The notes: generated by a model from the letters alone, not told the origin. Counted from the stretch's first letter, positions 9,516 through 19,224 are shown. The stretch: DNA of 64,000 bases from a bacterium (GCA_963693015.1 OY843748.1:2269337-2333336); one strand, 5' to 3'. Translations and numbers: made by a program.

Positions 9516-9611
9516 CGAGAGGGGCGGCGCTGTCCCGTGAGCCCGTCTCCTGATCGGAGTCATCGAGAGGGGCGGCGCTGCCCCGTGAACCCGTCTTCTG
9601 AACGGAGTCTT
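9516..9611 (+). repeat. Two-copy 48-bp tandem duplication in 5' leader of OCD gene
   Basis: cgagaggggcggcgctg(t/c)cccgtga(g/a)cccgtct(c/t)ctga(t/a)cggagtc at 9516 and 9564. Confidence 0.9.
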
Positions 9612-10600: not shown

Positions 10601-11658
10601 AGCGCGTGCTGATCATCCGGTCCGGCGCGGTCGGCGACCTCATCCTCACCCTCCCCGTACTCGCCGCGCTGAAGAAGTGCTACAGCGGCATATCCATCGA
10701 CATGATGGGCGACCCGGGCCGCCTTTCGCTGCTGAAGCAGTACGGTCACGTGGACGAGGTGCTGTCGATCGACAGCCGGAAATTCACTCCCTTGTTCGCG
10801 ACCGGCGGTGCACCCGAGACCGGCGGTGCACCCGAGACCGGCGGTGCGCCCGCGACCGGCGGTGCGCCCGCGGCCGATGCCGGTCCAGCGCTGCACATGC
10901 TTCATTCATACGACGCGATCATATCCTACCTTCCTGATGCCGGAGGGGTGTTTGAGGACAACCTTCGAAAATTCGCGTCCGGTCCGGTGCTTACAGGGCG
11001 GTCCCGACCCTCCGCCGGCCGCAGAATCCACGTGACCCGCGTGTTGATGGACGTCCTGAAGCCCCTGGACGTGGACACCTTCCCCGATCCACCCGAGATT
11101 CCTCCCATGTTGAGCGGCCCGGCGGATGACACGCGTAACCTGGCTTCGGACAGAACACCGATCGCCATACATCCTGGCAGCGGCGGACCGGCGAAATGCT
11201 GGCCGGCCGAGCGTTACACGGCGCTGATCGAATGCCTGGTCGACAGGGGCTACCGGCCGGTAGTAACCTTCGGGCCGGCGGACGACACGGTTCGCCGCCG
11301 CATTCTGCCTCGGATAAAGGCCCGTGACGCGCTTATCGTGCAGGACCGACCGCTCGTCGACATGGCCGCCCTCTACGCCCGGTGCCGGGCGATGATTGGC
11401 AATGATTCGGGTATGACCCACCTTGCCTCGGCGCTTGGCAGGCCGGTCATTGCCCTCTTCGGGCCGACCGATCCGGCCGTCTGGGGTCCCAGGGGGAAGG
11501 CGGTACGCATACTGTGGGGAGGCGGGGAGATCGGGCCAGATGTGGGCGGGTTGACCTGGATGGAGCCTTTTCGCCCACGCAGCCTTGCAGATATCGCCGT
11601 GGAAGCACCCCTCCGAATGCTATTGAATCTCGGCGTAACGGCCGGCACTGCGGTTTAA
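10597..11658 (+). CDS. Glycosyltransferase family 9 (heptosyltransferase-like)
   Basis: IIRSGAVGDLIL, IHPGSGGPAKCWP, IGNDSGMTHLA, LFGPTDP..WGP. Confidence 0.9.
   Translation: MKRVLIIRSGAVGDLILTLPVLAALKKCYSGISIDMMGDPGRLSLLKQYGHVDEVLSIDSRKFTPLFATGGAPETGGAPETGGAPATGGAPAADAGPALHMLHSYDAIISYLPDAGGVFEDNLRKFASGPVLTGRSRPSAGRRIHVTRVLMDVLKPLDVDTFPDPPEIPPMLSGPADDTRNLASDRTPIAIHPGSGGPAKCWPAERYTALIECLVDRGYRPVVTFGPADDTVRRRILPRIKARDALIVQDRPLVDMAALYARCRAMIGNDSGMTHLASALGRPVIALFGPTDPAVWGPRGKAVRILWGGGEIGPDVGGLTWMEPFRPRSLADIAVEAPLRMLLNLGVTAGTAV
10801..10872 (+). repeat. In-frame 18-bp x4 repeat (TGGAPE/TGGAPA) in GT9
   Basis: accggcggtgcacccgag-type units at 10801, 10819, 10837, 10855. Confidence 0.9.
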
Positions 11659-11735
11659 ATCAGTTTCAAGAGATAGAGGTAGTGCTACGTATATACAAAG
11701 TAGATACACAGGAAACACGACGATGTGGAAGCCGC

Positions 11736-11764
11736 TTGACACGATTTCCACGATGTGCTAAGTT
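11736..11764 (+). promoter_or_regulatory. Sigma70-type promoter, probably giving a leaderless transcript
   Basis: TTGACA 11736-11741, 17-bp spacer, TAAGTT 11759-11764, ATG 7 nt later, no SD; inverted repeat GTGGAA(11725-30)-N15-TTCCAC(11746-51) straddles the -35. Confidence 0.65.
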
Positions 11765-11771
11765 CGGCGAC

Positions 11772-12053
11772 ATGCGACCAGATCGATACACGCTGTTGCG
11801 GTTAGGCGCGGTAATCGCGCTCGCCTTGTTCGTACTCTCGACGACGCCACACAACCACGACGACGCCGAATGCGACGACTGCACCTGCGTGCCCTGCCTC
11901 GTCCAGGGCCTCCCGCTGATCGATACCACCGACCGCTCCGGCGCGCAGGAAACCCCCGATGCATCGGTACGGCGAATCCCCTTCGTCTCTGCCCTGGATC
12001 ACCCCCGCAATGCCGAGATCCACGGCAAGGACTCCCGGGCGCCGCCCGCCTGA
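11772..12053 (+). CDS. DUF2946-like His/Cys leader protein ending in RAPP (putative metal-responsive arrest uORF)
   Basis: 93 aa: signal/TM segment, PHNHDDAECDDCTCVPC, C-terminal SRAPPA*. Confidence 0.75.
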   Translation: MRPDRYTLLRLGAVIALALFVLSTTPHNHDDAECDDCTCVPCLVQGLPLIDTTDRSGAQETPDASVRRIPFVSALDHPRNAEIHGKDSRAPPA

Positions 12054-12241
12054 ATACCCCTCCAGTCCCATGGCAGGTTCATTCGCTGATGCCCCGCTCC
12101 GTTACCGGTCGATTGATGACCGCCGGTCCGTCGAGGACCACCCGGCGCATTGGCGATCGTTTTTCCCGTATTTGACGATCCACAGGTGCGCCGCCGCCGC
12201 GCCGACGATCTCGTATATCCCATTTCCCGGAGGGTGAGTCC

Positions 12242-13048
12242 ATGGAATCCGGTCTGGTATCCCGGATGAATCATGAAAACGAAGCAGGGACGGTCGATGC
12301 ACCTGACAGGCGGCCCCCGGTTGCCGATGGGGCATCGACCCCTGTGCTCGAGGCACGGGCGCTGTCCAAGCGATACGGCGAGCTGGAGGCCGTTACCGGC
12401 CTCGACCTTCGCGTGGAGCCATCGGAAATCTACTGTCTCCTTGGCCCCAACGGCGCCGGCAAGACGACTACGATCCATCTTTTCCTGGGGTTTCTGGAAC
12501 CGACGTCCGGAAGCGCGCACGTGATGGGTATGGACGTCGCCGACGAGCCCCTGAAGTCCAAAAACCACCTGGCCTATATTCCCGAGCAGGTCATGCTCTA
12601 CCGCAACCTGAGCGGCCTGGAAAACCTGGCTTACTTCTCGGCGCTGGGCGGGAAGGAGTCCCTGTCACCGGAAAGACTTTCCGAGATCCTCGTCGAAGCG
12701 GGTCTGCAGACGGAAGCGGTACATTCCCGCGTCTCCGAATACTCCAAGGGTATGCGGCAGAAAGTCGGCATCGCGATCGCCATCGCCAAGGAGGCCGACG
12801 CCCTGCTCCTCGACGAACCGACGTCGGGCCTCGATCCCCAGGCGTCGAATGAATTCTCCGAATTGCTCGAACGGCTCAAGGAACGGGGCGTCGCGGTGCT
12901 CATGGCGACCCACGACCTGTTCCGCGCAAAGGAGTCCGGCACGCGGATCGGAATCATGCGGTATGGGCGTCTCGTCGCGGAGATGACGACCGATGAAATC
13001 GGCCACGCGGACCTCGAACGCATCTACCTGGATCACATGCACGAATAG
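12242..13048 (+). CDS. ABC transporter ATP-binding protein
   Basis: GPNGAGKTT, YSKGMRQK, LLLDEPTSGLDP, ATHD. Confidence 0.95.
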   Translation: MESGLVSRMNHENEAGTVDAPDRRPPVADGASTPVLEARALSKRYGELEAVTGLDLRVEPSEIYCLLGPNGAGKTTTIHLFLGFLEPTSGSAHVMGMDVADEPLKSKNHLAYIPEQVMLYRNLSGLENLAYFSALGGKESLSPERLSEILVEAGLQTEAVHSRVSEYSKGMRQKVGIAIAIAKEADALLLDEPTSGLDPQASNEFSELLERLKERGVAVLMATHDLFRAKESGTRIGIMRYGRLVAEMTTDEIGHADLERIYLDHMHE

Positions 13049-13057
13049 GAGCCGACC

Positions 13058-14467
13058 ATGATCGGGCATATTGTCCGCAAGGAGTTTATGGACGTGGTGC
13101 GGGACGGACGCTTCCGATGGTGCGCCGCGCTGGTAGGCGCCCTGCTCCTGGTCTCGCTGGGCACCGGCTGGGTCCAGGCGCGCAACGCGCAGAAGGAACT
13201 GGCCGCCGCGCAGGCCACCGCCCGTGATCACTGGGAATCGCAGGGCGAGAAGAACCCCCATTCCGCGGCCCACTACGGCGTCTACGCCTTCAAGCCCCGG
13301 CTGGCGTTGTCCTTTGTCGACGAGGGCGTGGATTCCTACGCGGGGACGTCGGTATTTCTGGAGGCCCACAGGCAGAACGATTTCCTGCTGCGCCCGGCAC
13401 AGGACGCGACACCCGCGCAGCGCTTCGGCGCCTTGACGGCGGCGCAGGTCCTGCAGCACCTGGTGCCGCTGCTCATCATCCTTTTGACCTTCGGCGCCTT
13501 CGCCGGCGAGCGGGAGCGAGGTACGCTGCGCCAGTTGCTGGCTACGGGCGTCGGACGCCTTGAACTCGCATTCGGCAAGGCCCTCGGCGTAGCCGCCGCC
13601 CTGGCGCTGCTCCTGGTACCCGCGGCACTCGTCGGGGCGGCCGCCATCGTCATAGGAAGCCCCGGACCGGCGGCATCCCCTATGGTCCGCGGCGCCGTGC
13701 TGACCGCCGTGTACCTGGTTTATTTCGCGACGTTTATCGGGCTGTCCCTCGCCGTCTCGGCAAGGGCCCCTTCGGCGCGGGCCGCACTGGTGGTTCTGCT
13801 GGCCGTCTGGGTGGTTAACGGCCTCGTGGCGCCGCGTGTCGCGGTGGATCTGTCGAAGTGGCTGTACCCGACGCCCTCGGCGGTGGAGTTCGCTCAAACA
13901 ATTCGCAAGGAGATGGCCGGTGGCGTGGACGGCATCGAGCGTCCCGACCGGGCCGCTTCGACGCAGGAACTGCTCGATCAGTACAACCTGGAAAACGTCG
14001 AGGACCTCCCAATAAACGCCATTGGCGTCTTTCTGCAGAAGAGCGAGGAATTCGGCAACCAGATCTACGACCGCAATTACGGTGCCCTGTGGAGCACCTT
14101 CGAGCGCCAGGGATACGTGCACGAAGCGCTTGCGGTGACGGCGCCCCTGCTGGCGATCCGGACGCTATCCATGGGCTTGGCCGGGACCGACGTCGAACAG
14201 CACCGGCACTTCGCCGCCGCCGCGGAGGAATACCGCCGGGCGTTGGTGGAGCGCCTGAACAACGAGTTAACCGAAAACTCACGCACCGGTGAAGTTTATC
14301 TCGCCGCCGCCGATCTCTGGTCGCACGTGCCGCCCTTCCGCTACGACGCTCCGACGGTGGAGTGGATCCTGCAGAACCGGGTCCTGTCGCTTCTGGTGCT
14401 GGGGCTGTGGCTGGCCGGTGCGTTTGCGGCCGTAGTGGCCGCCGTGCGCCGTGCGGAGGTGGCCTGA
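13058..14467 (+). CDS. ABC-2 type permease, DUF3526 family
   Basis: KNPHSAAHYGVYAFKP, GERERGTLRQLLA, multiple TMs. Confidence 0.85.
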   Translation: MIGHIVRKEFMDVVRDGRFRWCAALVGALLLVSLGTGWVQARNAQKELAAAQATARDHWESQGEKNPHSAAHYGVYAFKPRLALSFVDEGVDSYAGTSVFLEAHRQNDFLLRPAQDATPAQRFGALTAAQVLQHLVPLLIILLTFGAFAGERERGTLRQLLATGVGRLELAFGKALGVAAALALLLVPAALVGAAAIVIGSPGPAASPMVRGAVLTAVYLVYFATFIGLSLAVSARAPSARAALVVLLAVWVVNGLVAPRVAVDLSKWLYPTPSAVEFAQTIRKEMAGGVDGIERPDRAASTQELLDQYNLENVEDLPINAIGVFLQKSEEFGNQIYDRNYGALWSTFERQGYVHEALAVTAPLLAIRTLSMGLAGTDVEQHRHFAAAAEEYRRALVERLNNELTENSRTGEVYLAAADLWSHVPPFRYDAPTVEWILQNRVLSLLVLGLWLAGAFAAVVAAVRRAEVA

Positions 14468-14469
14468 CC

Positions 14470-15918
14470 ATGGGGACCATGACTACGAAGACCATCCTGG
14501 CAAACGAGTGGCGGCTTCTTGCCGCCGACCGTATCCTGCGGATCGTACTGCCGCTTTTTGTCGTCCTCTTCGCCTACGCGCTGGCCAACGGCATGGCCTG
14601 GGTCCGTTTCCAGGAACGTACGGTGCAGGTCGTGCGTGACGGGAACGTCGAACGGACCGACGCGTTGGAACGCGAACTGATCGCCATTGAAAACGGAAGC
14701 CAGCCGTCCTCCCCCTTCCGCGACCCCCGCGCCGCCAACGTGATGGGCGGCGCACGGGGGGCCCGGTCCGTCGCGCTGGACCCCGGACCCCTGACCGCCC
14801 TGGCGGTGGGGCAAAGCGATCTCCTGCCTTATTACTACGATGTCAGCATCAACACCAACGAGTCCACCTTCCTTCAGAACGGCGAGGTGGAGAATCCCCT
14901 GAACCTCATGGTCGGACGATTCGACCTGGCCTTCGTGGCGGTCTACCTGCTGCCCCTGCTCGTACTGGCCCTGAGTTTCAACGTGCTGTCCGGGGAGCGG
15001 GAGCAAGGCACCCTGGCGCTGACGCTTTCGCAACCCGTGTCGGTGCGCCGCGTCGTGGCCACGAAACTCGCCTTCCGGGCGCTGCTGGTCATGGCCGTGG
15101 CCATCGGGGTGTCGGCACTCGGAATACTGATCACAGGCAGCCTCGGATCGTCGGAGCCTTCCGGCAGGGCGCTGCTGTGGTGTGCGGCGCTGACCGTATA
15201 CGCACTGTTCTGGTTCTCGCTTACCGCGTGGGTAAACAGCCTGGGTCGGTCCTCCGCGTGGAACGCCACGGTGCTGGTGGGCGCCTGGCTCGTACTGGTG
15301 GTGGTGCTGCCGGCCGCAATCAATATCGCGGCGGGCCTGTTCCACCCGTTGCCCTCCCGCGTGGAGATGATCACTGCCCAGCGCGAAGCCTCGAACGATG
15401 CGGTAAGCCGCCGCAGCGAACTGCTCGCCCGCTACCTCGAGGACCATCCGGAACTGGCGGGTGGCGCGGTTGCGGATGAGTCCAACAGGGCGGCCCTCGC
15501 CTGGGCCGCCACGGAAGCAGTCAACCGGCGCCTGGAGGAGGTGTCGGCGCAGCACCGGCTACGGCGCGAAGAGCAAAGTGAACTGGTCCGTCGATACCGG
15601 TTCCTTTCCCCCGCGCTCCTGGTCCAGGAAATGCTTATCGACGCGGCGGGAACAGGTGACGCGCGGTACGCCCGGTTCCAGTCGCAGGTACGCGGATTCG
15701 CAGATCAGTGGCGTTCCTTCTTCGTGCCGGCGATACTGGCCGGAGAGAAGATGTCGGCGGAGGTGCTTCCCAAGGTACCGAAGTTTCAGTTCGTAGACGA
15801 GTCATTCGCTGACGTGAGCCGGCGCGCCGCGGTACCGTTTTCGACGCTGACCATACTGGTCGGACTGGTGAGCGCGGGTGCCTGGATCGGTCTGGGAAGG
15901 GTGCGCGGCGCCGGATGA
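14470..15918 (+). CDS. ABC-2 type permease, DUF3526 family (second paralog)
   Basis: LAVGQSDLLP, NPLNLMVGRFDLAFVAVYLLPL, GEREQGTL; ATG at 14470 just after upstream stop. Confidence 0.85.
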   Translation: MGTMTTKTILANEWRLLAADRILRIVLPLFVVLFAYALANGMAWVRFQERTVQVVRDGNVERTDALERELIAIENGSQPSSPFRDPRAANVMGGARGARSVALDPGPLTALAVGQSDLLPYYYDVSINTNESTFLQNGEVENPLNLMVGRFDLAFVAVYLLPLLVLALSFNVLSGEREQGTLALTLSQPVSVRRVVATKLAFRALLVMAVAIGVSALGILITGSLGSSEPSGRALLWCAALTVYALFWFSLTAWVNSLGRSSAWNATVLVGAWLVLVVVLPAAINIAAGLFHPLPSRVEMITAQREASNDAVSRRSELLARYLEDHPELAGGAVADESNRAALAWAATEAVNRRLEEVSAQHRLRREEQSELVRRYRFLSPALLVQEMLIDAAGTGDARYARFQSQVRGFADQWRSFFVPAILAGEKMSAEVLPKVPKFQFVDESFADVSRRAAVPFSTLTILVGLVSAGAWIGLGRVRGAG

Positions 15919-15955
15919 GCCGGCTTCGGCAGTCTTCCAGAGATATGGAGAAGAT

Positions 15956-16354
15956 ATGATACGATATATCAGTCGAGGAGCCGTCGACAACGCCGGCGTG
16001 TTCCTTTCCTCGGCGTGCGCGGTCCATTGCATGGCCGTGCCGCTGCTGGTGACGTTCCTGCCGCTTGTGGGGCTGGGTTTTCTTGCCAGTGAACCCGCCG
16101 AATTCGCCATAGTCGGCGCCGTCCTGCTGGCAGTCGGGAGCGTGGTCGCGGGCGTCAGGTACCACAGGCGATACCGGGCGTTTCTCACGCTCGTGTTGGC
16201 CGTGGGGGTTATCACAGCGGGTTACATCGCGGCCGAAGGGAGCTTCGAGGTGATCCTCCATGTAACCGGTGGTGTCCTGCTCGCGGCAACCCATCTGCTG
16301 AACCGGCACCTGTGCAGGACGTGTCCCGCGGCGGAATGCGGACCGGCTCGTTAG
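15956..16354 (+). CDS. MerC-domain membrane protein
   Basis: DNAGVFLSSACAVHCMAVPLL, four TMs, HLLNRHLCRTC C-terminus. Confidence 0.8.
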   Translation: MIRYISRGAVDNAGVFLSSACAVHCMAVPLLVTFLPLVGLGFLASEPAEFAIVGAVLLAVGSVVAGVRYHRRYRAFLTLVLAVGVITAGYIAAEGSFEVILHVTGGVLLAATHLLNRHLCRTCPAAECGPAR

Positions 16355-16396: not shown

Positions 16397-16999
16397 TCAA
16401 GGTGAGATGGCGTTGGGATTCCTTGTCCTGATCTGTTCGACCAACGTGTCGAAGAATACATCGAACGGCTGTGACACCCGCAGTATTGCCGGCCCTGTAT
16501 TGAAATCCACTTCCACCAGCGCGAAGTCTTCTACTGTCCCAGTAGTCCAGGACGGAGGGCGTCGGCCCGATAGGGAGCGAACACGATTTCGAAAGAGATC
16601 GCACCATGTAGAACCGTGCTTAGTGGAATAGCTGTCCTCGGCAACGTTGAAGATCATGATGTAGCCGATCACGATCTCCGGTGAGTGAAGCTGTGCGTTC
16701 GTGACTTCGCCGATCATGTCGTCAATCCGGTTGGGGACGGTCCCGCCAAGGTTTTTCAGAATCGATTTCATAGAGACTCCCAGCCGGTATTTGCCGTCGT
16801 AGCGCCAGGCGACGTCCCATTTTTTGTCGCGACCTCCACCAGGAATCGTGGCTTCTTTCTCGACGTCTGTCAAGCCGCGCCGATTAAACTCCTGCACGCA
16901 GAAATCTGCTAACACTTCAAGTCGTGCGGTCGAAGTTGCCTTTTTCTCCGTGACGGCAATGCGGTACAGATCGTCGACAGCCGCCTGAGCAGTTATCAA
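16397..16999 (-). CDS. Putative Type II restriction endonuclease (PD-(D/E)xK fold)
   Basis: KKWDVAW...GVSMKS...NRIDDMIGE resembles XhoI/PaeR7I-like D...xK(S)...NR.EE..G layout; TTG start overlaps the methylase stop. Confidence 0.65.
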   Translation of the reverse strand: MITAQAAVDDLYRIAVTEKKATSTARLEVLADFCVQEFNRRGLTDVEKEATIPGGGRDKKWDVAWRYDGKYRLGVSMKSILKNLGGTVPNRIDDMIGEVTNAQLHSPEIVIGYIMIFNVAEDSYSTKHGSTWCDLFRNRVRSLSGRRPPSWTTGTVEDFALVEVDFNTGPAILRVSQPFDVFFDTLVEQIRTRNPNAISP

Positions 17000-18009
17000 G
17001 CGCTTACCTCCCTCCCAGCCACAGGTAATCCCCTTTTCGCTTCGATCTCACCAGTACGTATTTCAACCTTTTTTAACAGGCTGGCAGTCTTTCTAACGAA
17101 ACGATCTACGGCCTTACCGTAGTAGACAGGGTCGACTTCGATGCCGATACTGTTACGGCCACACTTGGCGGCGGCAATCTGGGTCGACGCCGTCCCGGTA
17201 AAAGGATCAAGTACCGTGTCACCTACAAAGCTGAACATCCTGACTAAACGATCGGCCAGGGCGACCGGAAAAGGGGCAGGATGGTCTCGGGTCGATGCGC
17301 CGGCTATGTCGGTCCAGATCTGGCGGAAGTGTGTTTTAAAACTCTCCTCGGATAGCAGACTCAGTGTCCTCGCGGCCACGCTTGGTTTTCGGTAGCCACC
17401 GGGCTTCCGTTGCATCAATATGAACTCTATGTCGTTCTTGATCACGGCATTGGGTTCGTACGGTTTGCCCAGGAAACCGCCTGTCCCACGCTCCACTTCA
17501 TGTGCTACGTTTGCGATCTTGTGCCATATTATAGGCGCAAGATTGTCGAACCCGATTTTTCTGCACCTGTCCTGAATGGAAGCGTGCAGGGGAACTACAG
17601 TATGGCGGCCATCGTTCTTGCGGCGCGAAAGGCAGACGTCACCTACCACGCAGATGAGCCGTCCCCCGGGCACTAGCGCTTGATGGCAAACGCTCCATAC
17701 CTCATCCAGTTGTTCGAGGAACTCATCGTAGTGCGTGATCCAACCCAATTGACCTTCCGTACGCCGGTATTGCTTCAGGGTCCAGTACGGTGGCGACGTA
17801 AGCACGAGATGGACTGATGCTTCGGGCAGGACTGCGCGGCGCGCGTCTCCGAGCAGGAGTCGATGATGCGTCGGTATCTGTTCCACCGCGGCCGAAATCA
17901 TCGACATGCCGGCAGGATCTTTCGCGATCCTCGGCAGGTCGCGCGAGGGATCGTCCAGATGCCTGAACTGTTCTGGTACGAAAGCGGCGAGCGGCACAGG
18001 TTCGTTCAT
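16996..18009 (-). CDS. Site-specific DNA amino-methyltransferase, beta class (N4-C likely)
   Basis: Motif IV LTSPPY precedes HPAPFP and motif I VLDPFTGTAST. Confidence 0.9.
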   Translation of the reverse strand: MNEPVPLAAFVPEQFRHLDDPSRDLPRIAKDPAGMSMISAAVEQIPTHHRLLLGDARRAVLPEASVHLVLTSPPYWTLKQYRRTEGQLGWITHYDEFLEQLDEVWSVCHQALVPGGRLICVVGDVCLSRRKNDGRHTVVPLHASIQDRCRKIGFDNLAPIIWHKIANVAHEVERGTGGFLGKPYEPNAVIKNDIEFILMQRKPGGYRKPSVAARTLSLLSEESFKTHFRQIWTDIAGASTRDHPAPFPVALADRLVRMFSFVGDTVLDPFTGTASTQIAAAKCGRNSIGIEVDPVYYGKAVDRFVRKTASLLKKVEIRTGEIEAKRGLPVAGREVSA

Positions 18010-18201: not shown

Positions 18202-19224
18202 CTACTCGCCGAAGGACCATGCTGCTTCGCCCGATTCACGGATGGTAAGGCGGCACGCGGGTCCGAAGGTATGGGTCGTGGTTACGGAGACCGGTTGTGT
18301 TTCCATGGTAAAGGCGGTGATGCCCCCGATTCCGCCGCCTGCTCCAACGCGCCCTGATCCATCACGGTTGCTCCCTGGTCCATCACGGTTGCTCCCTGGT
18401 CCATCACGGTTGCTCCCTGGTCCATCGCGGTCTTCGTCCTTCGGCATCCGCTCCACCACGATATCGAGATTGGGTCCGCGGAACTTCGTCCGTTCAGGAC
18501 AAGCAGTCGCCTCGGCCTCGGTTTCGCCACTTTCCTCAGGACCCGCGTCCCGCCTCCACGAATCCGCGGCAAAGTCCGATCCCGCCGCGACATATCCATA
18601 GACACCTAGTTCCGCTTCGAGCCGGTCGGCCTCGTCGGGCGGCAGGGATACGGTCACCGAGGTGATGTCCCGGAAGAGCCGGTTGTCAAGATCGTCGCCG
18701 ATGGCGGCACGGTAACGTGTGAGGAAACCGCTACGTGTGATGTCCGCCTGATCCGTAACCGACTGGCGCGGAGGCAGGTTCGGCGCCCACCTGCCCAGGA
18801 ACCCGGGATCGTATTCCATCACCCAGGAGATCAACCGGGCATCGTCTGAGCGCGGGATTTCGACGGACCAGAACCACGGGATGTCCTGATCCCGGTCCCT
18901 TCGGTTGCGTTTGTACCGCCTCACTTCCCGATCCGTGGCTGGTTCCAGTCGCCGCGCCAGCGCTACCGATCCGCCCTCCGACTCGATGCCGAACGCCAGG
19001 CCGTCGCGGGGCGCCCAGGAGGTCCTGTCCGGATTCATGAACTCGAAATAGGTATGGCGGCCGTAGTAGTACCGGCCCGTCCACGACATGCCCGTGGCCT
19101 GGTCGTGGGTCGTCCGCTCCTCTGAACAGGCGAAGTGTTCGTTCAGGAACCCGGACGCGGACAGGGCGCGGTAGGTGTCCCGGTCGACGAATACGAGGAG
19201 GTGGTTAAGATAGACAGGGTGCAT
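18202..19224 (-). CDS. DUF5829-like protein
   Basis: YLNHLLVFVD..TY..L..S.FL...F...EERTT...W.G.YY.G..TYFEF pattern. Confidence 0.65.
   Translation of the reverse strand: MHPVYLNHLLVFVDRDTYRALSASGFLNEHFACSEERTTHDQATGMSWTGRYYYGRHTYFEFMNPDRTSWAPRDGLAFGIESEGGSVALARRLEPATDREVRRYKRNRRDRDQDIPWFWSVEIPRSDDARLISWVMEYDPGFLGRWAPNLPPRQSVTDQADITRSGFLTRYRAAIGDDLDNRLFRDITSVTVSLPPDEADRLEAELGVYGYVAAGSDFAADSWRRDAGPEESGETEAEATACPERTKFRGPNLDIVVERMPKDEDRDGPGSNRDGPGSNRDGPGSNRDGSGRVGAGGGIGGITAFTMETQPVSVTTTHTFGPACRLTIRESGEAAWSFGE
18358..18430 (-). repeat. In-frame 21-bp repeat x3.4 (DGPGSNR)
   Basis: tccatcacggttgctccctgg at 18358, 18379, 18400, partial 18421. Confidence 0.9.

Follow-up and report, generated by a model that had tools for sequence, protein, structure and literature searches.

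A putative metal-sensing arrest leader at the head of a DUF3526 ABC transporter operon in sponge symbionts and Acidobacteriota

The subject of this analysis is a small open reading frame (ORF), and the set of genes that it heads, in a stretch of bacterial DNA of 64,000 nucleotides (nt) (GCA_963693015.1 OY843748.1:2269337-2333336; the window, with coordinates counted from its first letter). Five co-directional genes on the plus strand occupy 11772-16354: the small ORF, referred to here as the leader and a candidate for a metal-sensing translational arrest peptide, the ATPase of an ATP-binding cassette (ABC) transporter, two paralogous permeases with DUF3526 domains and a MerC-family membrane protein (Table 1). 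A first-pass annotation of this DNA had described a 93-residue exported His/Cys peptide followed by these four genes, and all five are where it had put them. The ABC_tran, ABC2_membrane_2 and DUF3526 matches of the ATPase and of both permeases exceed the Pfam cutoffs. The best NCBIfam model of the ATPase is the drrA subfamily, with a score under that model's cutoff, and its ATG follows the Shine-Dalgarno (SD) sequence GGAGGG at a gap of 7 nt. The MerC protein carries CAVHC within its first helix and a CxxC...C tail. (A start of permease 2 at the first GTG of its ORF, 14362, was considered and dropped; the ATG at 14470 fits the 482-residue calls in related loci L001, L003 and L005.)

Table 1. 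Features of the leader-transporter locus, in window coordinates
Feature	Position	Strand	Remarks
Promoter-like element	11736-11764	+	TTGACA 11736-11741, 17-nt spacer, TAAGTT 11759-11764; read from the sequence
Leader ORF	11772-12053	+	93 residues: export signal (2-24), PHxH (26-29), CxxC (39-42), variable linker, SRAPPA-stop
Candidate Rho-loading (rut, Rho utilization) region	11802-12093	+	C-rich, G-poor stretch of the transcript, 118 C to 74 G
Putative metal-binding segment of the nascent chain	11850-11858; 11886-11897	+	H27-x-H29 and C39-x-x-C42, respectively; invariant in the family alignment
Possible SD-masking helix, leader-side strand	12029-12039	+	GGACTC-CCGGG (Asp-Ser-Arg codons); RNAalifold
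Putative arrest site	12036-12053	+	R89-A-P-P92 (12036-12047), then Ala93 and TGA; R, P and P invariant
Intergenic spacer	12054-12241	+	188 nt; conserved in the clade
CCCCTCC box	12057-12063	+	In the spacer, 4-10 nt after the leader stop
Long hairpin and T5 run	about 12083-12157; 12160-12164	+	In the spacer; RNAalifold
GC hairpin	12185-12203	+	In the spacer; RNAalifold
Shine-Dalgarno GGAGGG	12229-12234	+	In the spacer
GAGTCC	12236-12241	+	In the spacer, just before the ATPase ATG
ABC transporter ATPase	12242-13048	+	268 residues, DrrA/ABC-2 type; Pfam ABC_tran 94.3 bits
Permease 1	13058-14467	+	469 residues; ABC2_membrane_2 94.1 bits, DUF3526 93.8 bits
Permease 2	14470-15918	+	482 residues; ABC2_membrane_2 78.8 bits, DUF3526 104.8 bits
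MerC-family membrane protein	15878-16354	+	Likely ATG 15956; Pfam MerC (PF03203) 73.6 bits, cutoff 27.6

The leader protein reads MRPDRYTLLRLGAVIALALFVLSTTPHNHDDAECDDCTCVPCLVQ...HGKDSRAPPA, then stop, and displays H27-N-H29, C34-D-D-C37-T-C39-V-P-C42 and R89-A-P-P92. Its N-terminus is, by inspection, an export signal: R2, R5 and R10, then LGAVIALALFVLS, then a signal-peptidase site between VLS and TT that conforms to the -3/-1 rule. (In the leaders of Vicinamibacterales, which are referred to below, that site lies between ALA and TT.) The first-pass annotation had RAPP as the C-terminus itself; the motif is present, but a single alanine separates it from the stop codon.

A first search found 11 orthologues of the leader, 65-99% identical and in syntenic loci. 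A profile search of 1.8 billion representatives, together with a second, word-indexed search that used a broader alignment, enlarged this group to a family of about 120 sequence clusters, none with a precomputed Pfam annotation; 123 cluster representatives were recovered, and their signature is PHxH-x9-CxxCH-x41-46-SRAPPA-stop. All but one of the 123 have R[AG]PP (121 RAPP and one RGPP), with a serine just before the arginine in 117. Among these 122, the exact ending RAPPA-stop is found in 114, CxxC (mostly as CV[LP]CH) in every one, and HxH, nine residues ahead of the first cysteine, in 113. The distance from CxxC to RAPP is 41-46 residues across the family, with a mode of 42, and 46 in the clade to which the window belongs. 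H27, H29, C39, C42, R89, P91 and P92 are invariant in the broad alignment; of the other two cysteines, C34 is kept in the window clade only and C37 is limited to the window and its 99%-identical relative. Conservation is lowest in the linker of about 40 residues that joins CxxCH to SRAPPA, and the last six residues and the stop are nearly invariant.

Pairwise comparison gives a ratio of nonsynonymous to synonymous change (dN/dS) of 0.35 for the window clade and 0.44 for Vicinamibacterales, and the codons of conserved Pro, His, Val, Leu and Gly residues vary synonymously; the frame is therefore translated and under purifying selection. At the other extreme, the TCC-CGG codons of the Ser-Arg pair, the GCC of the final alanine and the TGA are identical in all 20 loci found by protein similarity. 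On this comparative reading the leader is a real, conserved gene and not a chance ORF.

Further loci were gathered by protein identity look-ups, a genome scan (which gave 12 metagenome-assembled genomes, MAGs, of Vicinamibacterales), a DNA-pattern scan of metagenomes with the invariant 3' end of the leader, TCCCGGGCNCCNCCNGCCTGA (115 matches, 22 of them real leaders), tblastn against plasmids and tblastn re-annotation. They form three clades. In that of the window, which consists of sponge symbionts, the transporter proteins are 87-92% identical; in Vicinamibacterales the leader is about 50% identical and the transporter 75-84%; in a third, metagenomic clade the corresponding values are 35% and 73-81%. 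Every complete locus of the three clades has the order leader, spacer, ATPase, permease 1, permease 2, and the genes that flank this block differ among the clades. The spacer between leader and ATPase, 188 nt in the window, is about 100-260 nt long in the other loci. The earlier description of the leader as heading both the transporter and a MerC gene holds in full only for the window clade, where MerC lies 3' of the transporter in all loci; the operons of Vicinamibacterales and of the third clade lack it.

Two loci of the third clade bring MerC back in a different setting. In L030 (514-2807) and L034 (9441-11542) the leader, its spacer and a remnant of the 5' end of the ATPase gene stand immediately ahead of a MerC gene (28.6 bits) and a gene for a Peripla_BP_2 protein, an arrangement in which, to judge by these remnants, the transporter is lost and MerC retained under the leader. 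With the operon of the window clade, this makes two independent ties of MerC to the leader. In Vicinamibacterales the trio of promoter, leader and spacer occurs a second time, as a paralogue, in L015 (2818-3087) and L147 (9001-9267), where it heads a gene for a Calx-beta/GLUG protein of 1051-1445 residues. The spacer of this additional copy in L015 retains a remnant of the ATPase 5' end with its ATG changed to ATC; the one in L147 adjoins genes for a resolvase, an integrase and a transposase. In these two loci the cassette seems to have been duplicated to a place before another gene and, since the module stands ahead of other genes in L015, L147 and L030, promoter, leader and spacer evidently move as a unit.

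What precedes the leader is as constrained as what follows it. In 30 of 30 distinct upstream regions from the three clades (counted after two miscalled leader starts had been corrected) TTGAC starts 35-38 nt, mostly 36 nt, before the leader ATG. After it come 17 nt of spacer, a hexamer that contains A/T (TAAGTT, CTACAA or AAGAAT) and then 6-7 nt to the ATG (7 nt in the window); the sequence upstream of the -35 box is unrelated between clades. None of the upstream regions of the three clades offers a Shine-Dalgarno sequence to the leader ATG. With such a geometry transcription would begin on the A of the ATG or beside it, and the leader mRNA is accordingly predicted to be, and probably is, leaderless. 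Certain gene calls in this family (P0002, P0004-6) are of 105 residues, with a start 12 codons upstream; they were set aside, the extra stretch corresponding to the conserved -35/-10 DNA and not to protein sequence that is conserved in other clades.

RAPP is an arrest motif that has been established experimentally and structurally (PMC10951233). Proteomes strongly avoid it, and it is enriched at the C-termini of small exported upstream ORFs (uORFs); RAPP and RGPP arrests are refractory to elongation factor P (EF-P) (PMC12992588). The position of the stall is known from cryo-electron microscopy of ApdA and ApdP (PMC10951233) and from toeprinting of CruR, whose arrest has been demonstrated by in vitro translation combined with that method (PMC12992588). 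A ribosome stalled in the same manner on the window leader would have the CCG codon at 12042-12044 in its P-site, with some 30-35 residues of the nascent chain in the exit tunnel and, if the chain is exported, a further 12-15 spanning the translocon. The conserved spacing between CxxC and RAPP would then make geometric sense, because 42-46 residues would put CxxCH and PHxH just outside.

The closest likeness is to CruR (Bp2923) of Bordetella pertussis, an exported protein whose gene is first in its operon and followed by a long intergenic region, with a CxxC and with RAPP three residues before the stop; the spacing of the two motifs is 45 +/- 1-2 residues, and changing it by +5 abolishes regulation (PMC9426467). 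The CxxC of CruR is its copper-sensing motif (PMC9426467), and by this analogy the HxH and CxxC segment of the window leader would bind metal. All the properties of CruR that can be read in a sequence (CxxC, RAPP near the end, the spacing, an export signal, first-gene position, a long spacer) recur in the window leader, which also shares the C>G-rich leader RNA. The differences are nevertheless numerous. The invariant PHxH nine residues before CxxC is peculiar to the window family, and the window peptide has 93 residues to the 145 of CruR. Its mRNA is predicted to be leaderless, whereas transcription of cruR starts 45 bp upstream of the start codon. Its target is an ABC-2/DUF3526 transporter (with MerC in the window clade) in place of a TonB receptor and a PepSY_TM protein. 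The hosts, Gemmatimonadota-like sponge symbionts and Acidobacteriota, are absent from the CruR taxon table.

CruR-type leaders go by the Pfam name DUF2946, and it is at the level of the profile hidden Markov model (HMM) that the kinship is loosest. The window peptide has no Pfam or NCBIfam match, so that membership must be judged through its relatives. Of 20 diverse relatives, 12 match the DUF2946 model (PF11162) sub-threshold, the best with 21.0 bits (E 6e-4) against a gathering score of 23.7. No other family is matched by as many as three of the 20, and the matches are always colinear: they begin at the CxxC region and extend to the final position of the profile, which is aligned on RAPP. 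A bona fide DUF2946 gene that the DNA-pattern scan also retrieved (L083) scores 30.1 bits and serves as positive control; it precedes genes for a TonB-dependent receptor and a PepSY_TM protein, the classical cruR-bfrG-bp2921 arrangement. Like L105 and L136, whose leaders also stand ahead of TonB receptors, it ends with the identical SRAPPA-stop, and the CxxC-RAPP spacing of L083 and L105 is 42 residues. The DUF2946 kinship that had been proposed is therefore sustained by the order of the motifs and by their spacing (46 residues, against 45 +/- 1-2 in CruR; PMC9426467) but not by the HMM, to which the relatives come no closer than 21 bits. Since every sequence-level property of CruR is there and only the HMM threshold is missed, the family is best read as a divergent, currently unrecognised branch of the DUF2946/CruR kind and not as a formally demonstrated member of the Pfam family. 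The three canonical leaders just mentioned (L083, L105 and L136) have GATAAAAT 6-8 nt ahead of the ATG; unlike B. pertussis cruR, they may be translated from leaderless or nearly leaderless mRNAs.

CutF of Rhodobacter capsulatus, which the first-pass annotation had listed as another CxxC/RAPP leader, is not one: its own preprint gives it a CxxxC and a C-terminal, EF-P-sensitive PPP motif (bioRxiv 10.1101/2025.02.05.636593). Cysteines that lie beyond the tunnel sense the metal, and the stalled ribosome opens a stem-loop of the mRNA in which the ribosome-binding site downstream is concealed; the target is the multicopper oxidase CutO, the purpose is detoxification and metal turns expression ON (bioRxiv 10.1101/2025.02.05.636593). 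CutF nonetheless resembles the window leader as an exported DUF2946-type leader with a C-terminal proline motif, and an SD-masking helix comparable to its stem-loop can be drawn in the window; the window peptide has CxxC and RAPP, with only two prolines, and its candidate helix differs in showing no covariation and in not being kept in all clades. A 2025 survey by Fujiwara et al. found small RAPP/RGPP uORFs ahead of genes for TonB receptors, YcnI, PCuAC, PepSY and copper-resistance proteins (PMC12992588). The window leader resembles that class in being small and exported, with a C-terminal RAPP, conserved Cys/His residues and metal-related genes downstream.

How would a stall in the leader be conveyed to the ATPase gene? 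The spacer itself is well conserved, with a mean column identity of 78% across five members of the window clade and 75% in Vicinamibacterales. An Rfam scan of 11500-12500 at E<=1 recognised none of the catalogued riboswitches or leader RNAs there. The leader RNA of cruR contains a C>G-rich 'C>G bubble' that is a rut site (PMC9426467). The window has its counterpart: the GC skew of 11802-12093 is -0.23, among the lowest 0.4% of windows of that size in the 64-kb stretch, and in the other clades the C>G bias is shared by the 3' half of the leader together with the beginning of the spacer. Because of this match a route in which the stalled ribosome would block Rho-dependent termination within the 188-nt spacer, as in CruR, can be drawn for the window, and we put it at a little short of an even chance. 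The other route is that of CutF and SecM, in which a helix masking the Shine-Dalgarno sequence would be held open by the stalled ribosome. In the window clade, RNAalifold pairs GGCA.GGACUC, 5' of RAPP, with GAGUCC.AUG..CCG, and CCCUCC with the SD sequence GGAGGG (in window coordinates, the leader-side strand faces GAGTCC at 12236-12241 and CCCGG at 12226-12230, and CCCCTCC at 12057-12063 faces GGAGGG). Both strands on the leader side would be covered or melted by a ribosome halted at RAPP. In 16 of 17 loci from two clades the region of the arrest codons ranks first to fifth among some 150-200 windows as duplex partner of the SD region. The 5-bp core GRCUC:GAGUC is pairable in 94.7% of cells across the three clades, which is no better than column shuffles give. 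This second route is possible, though we incline somewhat against it; the two could act together, and a route of some other kind is unlikely.

Two observations on spacer structure belong here. Between about 12123 and 12140 the window has an 18-nt insertion, alone among the five members of its clade, that forms the perfect hairpin GGTCC-GTCGA-GGACC. In Vicinamibacterales (L014-L025, columns 138-185 of alignment A5) the called ATG of the ATPase is preceded, at 35-40 nt, by a conserved GGAGGGAGGAG box, and the interval contains CCCCGG-N7-CCGGGG, a hairpin in which the lengths of the two arms change in step (CCCGG/CCGGG). A GTG 8 nt past the box opens, in 10 of 15 of these loci, a mini-ORF of 10-14 codons that ends in ATGA on the ATPase ATG; missing from the other five, it was dropped as a conserved feature.

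The transporter has its own bearing on what might be sensed. The homologues of permease 1 that are 76-99% identical are named as proteins of Gemmatimonadetes or Acidobacteria MAGs. NosFY(D/L) is a copper-trafficking system, and NosFY works with a periplasmic copper chaperone. NosY is the closest solved relative of permease 1, at a distance (E 0.033 by sequence; by Foldseek, E 7e-3 and TM 0.26-0.45 for a model with pLDDT 59). The likeness extends to a DrrA-like ATPase and the lack of a substrate-binding protein (PDB 7o0y, 7znq); NosDFY(L) matures the copper enzyme N2O reductase (PDB 7o0y, 7znq). The operon of the window, for its part, has two distinct permease genes, and the product of each bears a DUF3526 domain and a C-terminal helix in addition; no NosD, NosL or NosZ is found near the locus. 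The first helix of permease 1 is followed by a predicted extracytoplasmic loop (residues 58-107) that contains HWESQGEKNPHSAAHYG and LEAHRQN; the histidines of both are invariant among 27 aligned homologues (76-90% identical), which makes the loop a possible metal site.

DUF3526 is not mentioned in the literature that was searched, and plasmids are more informative. On those of Proteobacteria and Bacteroidota (Hymenobacter, Comamonas, Blastomonas and Spirosoma), DUF3526 systems that are 30-40% identical adjoin genes for TonB receptors, and two of six such loci inspected have, at the head of the operon, a small ORF for an exported His/Cys peptide that ends in RGPP and two to four further residues. 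In Comamonas endophytica (L144, 4525-4875) it reads ...CLWC...DPRGPPLA, with a DUF2946 score of 13.8 bits, and in Hymenobacter canadensis (L142, ORF end 3467) ...HLHTH...HKHCH...LRGPPAGRV. (The Hymenobacter leader is annotated too short; its hydrophobic N-terminus and HLHTH lie upstream of the called start.) These operons have the same transporter architecture, an ABC ATPase and two DUF3526 proteins, and differ in the TonB receptor, which stands between leader and transporter or beside the transporter; the operon of the window clade has no receptor and adds MerC. DUF3526 transporters thus already lie within the CruR-type kind of regulon. The first-pass annotation had called this class of target undescribed. 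ABC, DUF3526 and MerC are indeed not named as targets in the CruR paper (PMC9426467) or the 2025 survey (PMC12992588), as far as the available parts of their text and supplements go, but, related leader-TonB-ABC-DUF3526 operons being in existence, that claim of novelty was overstated.

The association of DUF3526 with TonB receptors and RGPP leaders, and of the leader with MerC and Peripla_BP_2, points to a transporter that handles a thiophilic or borderline metal, most simply copper. Its designation as a 'Zn/Ni/Co/Cu transporter' is a guess. MerC proteins are known as mercury importers of mer operons; no mer genes (MerR, MerT/P, MerA) are found beside the MerC gene of the window or in any related locus.

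We consider that the 93-residue ORF is probably a cis-acting metal-sensing arrest leader of the CruR/CutF type that controls the operon behind it, with a probability of about 0.7, and would picture its action as follows. The promoter would end 7 nt short of the leader ATG, and the transcript would probably lack a 5' untranslated region. The nascent chain would present a Sec-type export signal, PHxH and CxxCH, a variable linker of about 45 residues and, finally, SRAPPA; when R-A-P is reached, with the second proline codon in the A-site, formation of the next peptide bond would stall. The linker would then fill the exit tunnel, and probably the translocon as well, and the His/Cys site would just have emerged; its occupancy by metal (most likely copper, to go by the analogy) would alter the length of the stall. 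Because the stalled ribosome would sit on C-rich RNA, beside sequences complementary to the ribosome-binding site of the ATPase gene, the duration of the stall would set the expression of the ATPase, the DUF3526 permeases and MerC. As to direction, we lean weakly to the logic of CruR, in which metal-replete cells switch the operon OFF, because the partners of DUF3526 elsewhere (TonB receptors, MerC and a periplasmic binding protein) are components of uptake.

A number of results weigh against this interpretation. The ABC-2 fold is typical of exporters and fits poorly with a logic of uptake. The window peptide does not match PF11162 at E<=1, or even at E<=10, and alignment (hhalign) of the family with four canonical DUF2946 sequences matched only the last 12 residues, with a probability of 15%, although so small a template makes that comparison uninformative. 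A simple consensus scan called neither promoter nor terminator at the locus; the -10 box, matching at three of six positions, is weak enough for the scan to have missed it, and the case for the promoter accordingly rests on the comparative geometry. A search for transcript, Ribo-seq or proteomic evidence met with nothing but Logan contigs of sponge, coral and marine metagenomes, besides one metatranscriptome that matches only generic ABC motifs, and these tell nothing about where transcripts end. The spacer folds are no more stable than those of shuffled sequence (z -0.1 to -1.3). As for the SD-masking helix, its duplex was not recovered in three of four third-clade loci, covariation is entirely missing (every proposed pair is invariant or changed on one side only) and the SD-like box of Vicinamibacterales is instead part of a local hairpin, 35-40 nt short of the ATPase start as called. 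Together with the performance of the shuffles, the unremarkable energies and the relatedness of the loci compared, this makes the evidence for that helix weak. Lastly, the signal-peptidase site is a good one in both the window and Vicinamibacterales leaders, so that a mature periplasmic function is also possible.

The last point leads to the alternative that survives best, distinctly improbable as we judge it to be: a functional secreted small metal-binding protein, such as a periplasmic metallochaperone or a substrate or partner of the ABC-2/MerC system, in which RAPPA would serve the mature protein or do no more than adjust its own synthesis, and the operon would not be regulated by it. The export signal with its plausible cleavage site would suit such a protein, as would the invariant HxH and CxxCH in an ORF under purifying selection, and in the chaperone of NosFY the nearest solved relative of the permeases has a periplasmic partner of that sort. 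It accords poorly with a stretch of 40 residues before SRAPPA that is poorly conserved next to six final residues and a stop that hardly vary, with the strong avoidance of RAPP in proteomes and its enrichment at the ends of small exported uORFs (PMC12992588), and with a promoter-leader-spacer module that moves as a unit ahead of unrelated genes; in B. pertussis, moreover, proteomics detected the operon partners of Bp2923 but not Bp2923 itself (PMC9426467). A secreted-protein role and that of a regulatory leader are not mutually exclusive.

A second alternative concerns the coupling step only and is a shade less probable again: that the spacer contains a classical transcription attenuator, formed either by the long hairpin and its T run or by the GC hairpin, at which transcription would end unless a ribosome detained at the close of the leader tipped the RNA into another fold. 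The former, with a run of T5-6, is present in four of five members of the window clade, and the GC hairpin with a pyrimidine-rich tract in all three clades, but the T runs are short or interrupted, and those of Vicinamibacterales begin 2 nt past the stem. To the scan that found no terminator and the insignificant fold z-scores must be added that no anti-terminator pairing was identified and that the 5' arm of the hairpin lies more than 30 nt past the stop, out of reach of the stalled ribosome.

Considerably less probable is a secretion monitor. ApdA, ApdP and SecM monitor protein export and regulate components of the Sec or YidC machinery (PMC7897499, PMC10951233). A peptide of that type would be freed from its stall when Sec or YidC pulls on it, and would report the capacity for membrane insertion and not a metal. 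The leader resembles ApdA and ApdP in its export signal and C-terminal RAPP (PMC7897499, PMC10951233), and all three in having a variable 'regulator module' N-terminal to the arrest core; the products encoded downstream are, besides, membrane proteins. They are not, however, Sec or YidC components (no secA, secDF or yidC is among them). The monitoring peptides have no Cys/His sensor that is conserved and kept at a set distance from the core, and the invariant HxH and CxxCH, which match the copper-sensing CxxC of CruR, would have no role in one; nor would the sub-threshold DUF2946 matches of the family be expected. As for a chance frame with coincidental motifs, 85 ORFs of at least 50 residues do overlap this 11-kb GC-rich stretch, but about 120 homologous clusters that share start, frame, motifs and stop, a dN/dS below 0.5 with synonymous variation at conserved residues and a conserved promoter positioned on the ATG refute it.

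Within the arrest-leader interpretation there is room for a bolder version, which we rate as unlikely: a new subfamily of arrest leaders, defined by PHxH with CxxCH and by leaderless mRNA, that would sense not copper but another metal (Zn, Ni, Co or Hg, for instance, in view of the MerC partner), or else the balance of Cu and Zn, and control a NosFY-like ABC-2 machine that handles periplasmic metal rather than pumping a solute.

The surroundings of the locus may be briefly described. Upstream of the leader lie housekeeping genes, for glutamine synthetase, an ornithine cyclodeaminase-like protein and a heptosyltransferase; MerC is followed by genes for a hypothetical protein and a DNA methylase and then by DUF5829 and sulfatase genes. 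The former two, on the minus strand at 16397-18009, encode a 200-residue hypothetical protein and an N6_N4 DNA methylase (114 bits) in DNA of 57% GC, in surroundings of about 65%. The pair is present in L012 and not in L001, and in L003 the methylase alone is called; it looks like a variable restriction-modification-like insertion. Tandem repeats lie at 10797-10876 (an 18-nt unit, 4.4 copies, coding for GGAPET/A repeats within the heptosyltransferase gene), at 18352-18431 (a 21-nt unit, 3.8 copies, coding for PGSNRDG repeats within the DUF5829 gene) and at 9516-9609 (a 48-nt unit, two copies, upstream of the ornithine cyclodeaminase-like gene). The DNA of the window finds sequence matches almost only among sponge metagenomes; the nearest permease homologue with a name carries the label 'Gemmatimonadetes bacterium'; it is 89% identical and its locus is syntenic.

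Metal-sensing arrest leaders, as exemplified by CruR and CutF, are a recently discovered means of regulating genes without a protein regulator and, to our knowledge, these two are the only ones that have been studied. If the leader described here is an ordinary copper switch of the CruR kind, the gain is incremental. What would be new is a subfamily that is invisible to Pfam, whose sensor includes a PHxH as well, whose transcript is probably leaderless and which would directly control an ABC-2/DUF3526 transporter (with MerC in one clade), in phyla that are new to such leaders, the Acidobacteriota and Gemmatimonadota-like sponge symbionts. The promoter-leader-spacer cassette could serve as a portable metal-responsive switch. 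DUF3526 systems are tied here to a putative arrest leader with Cys/His residues, in Proteobacteria and Bacteroidota to TonB receptors and leaders ending in RGPP, and in two arrangements to MerC; together these ties generate the testable hypothesis that these systems act in the homeostasis of metal, probably copper. Should the bolder version set out above prove true, the leader would be the first RAPP sensor of a metal other than copper, and the DUF3526 transporters, which are widespread and usually paired with TonB receptors, would receive their first functional assignment.

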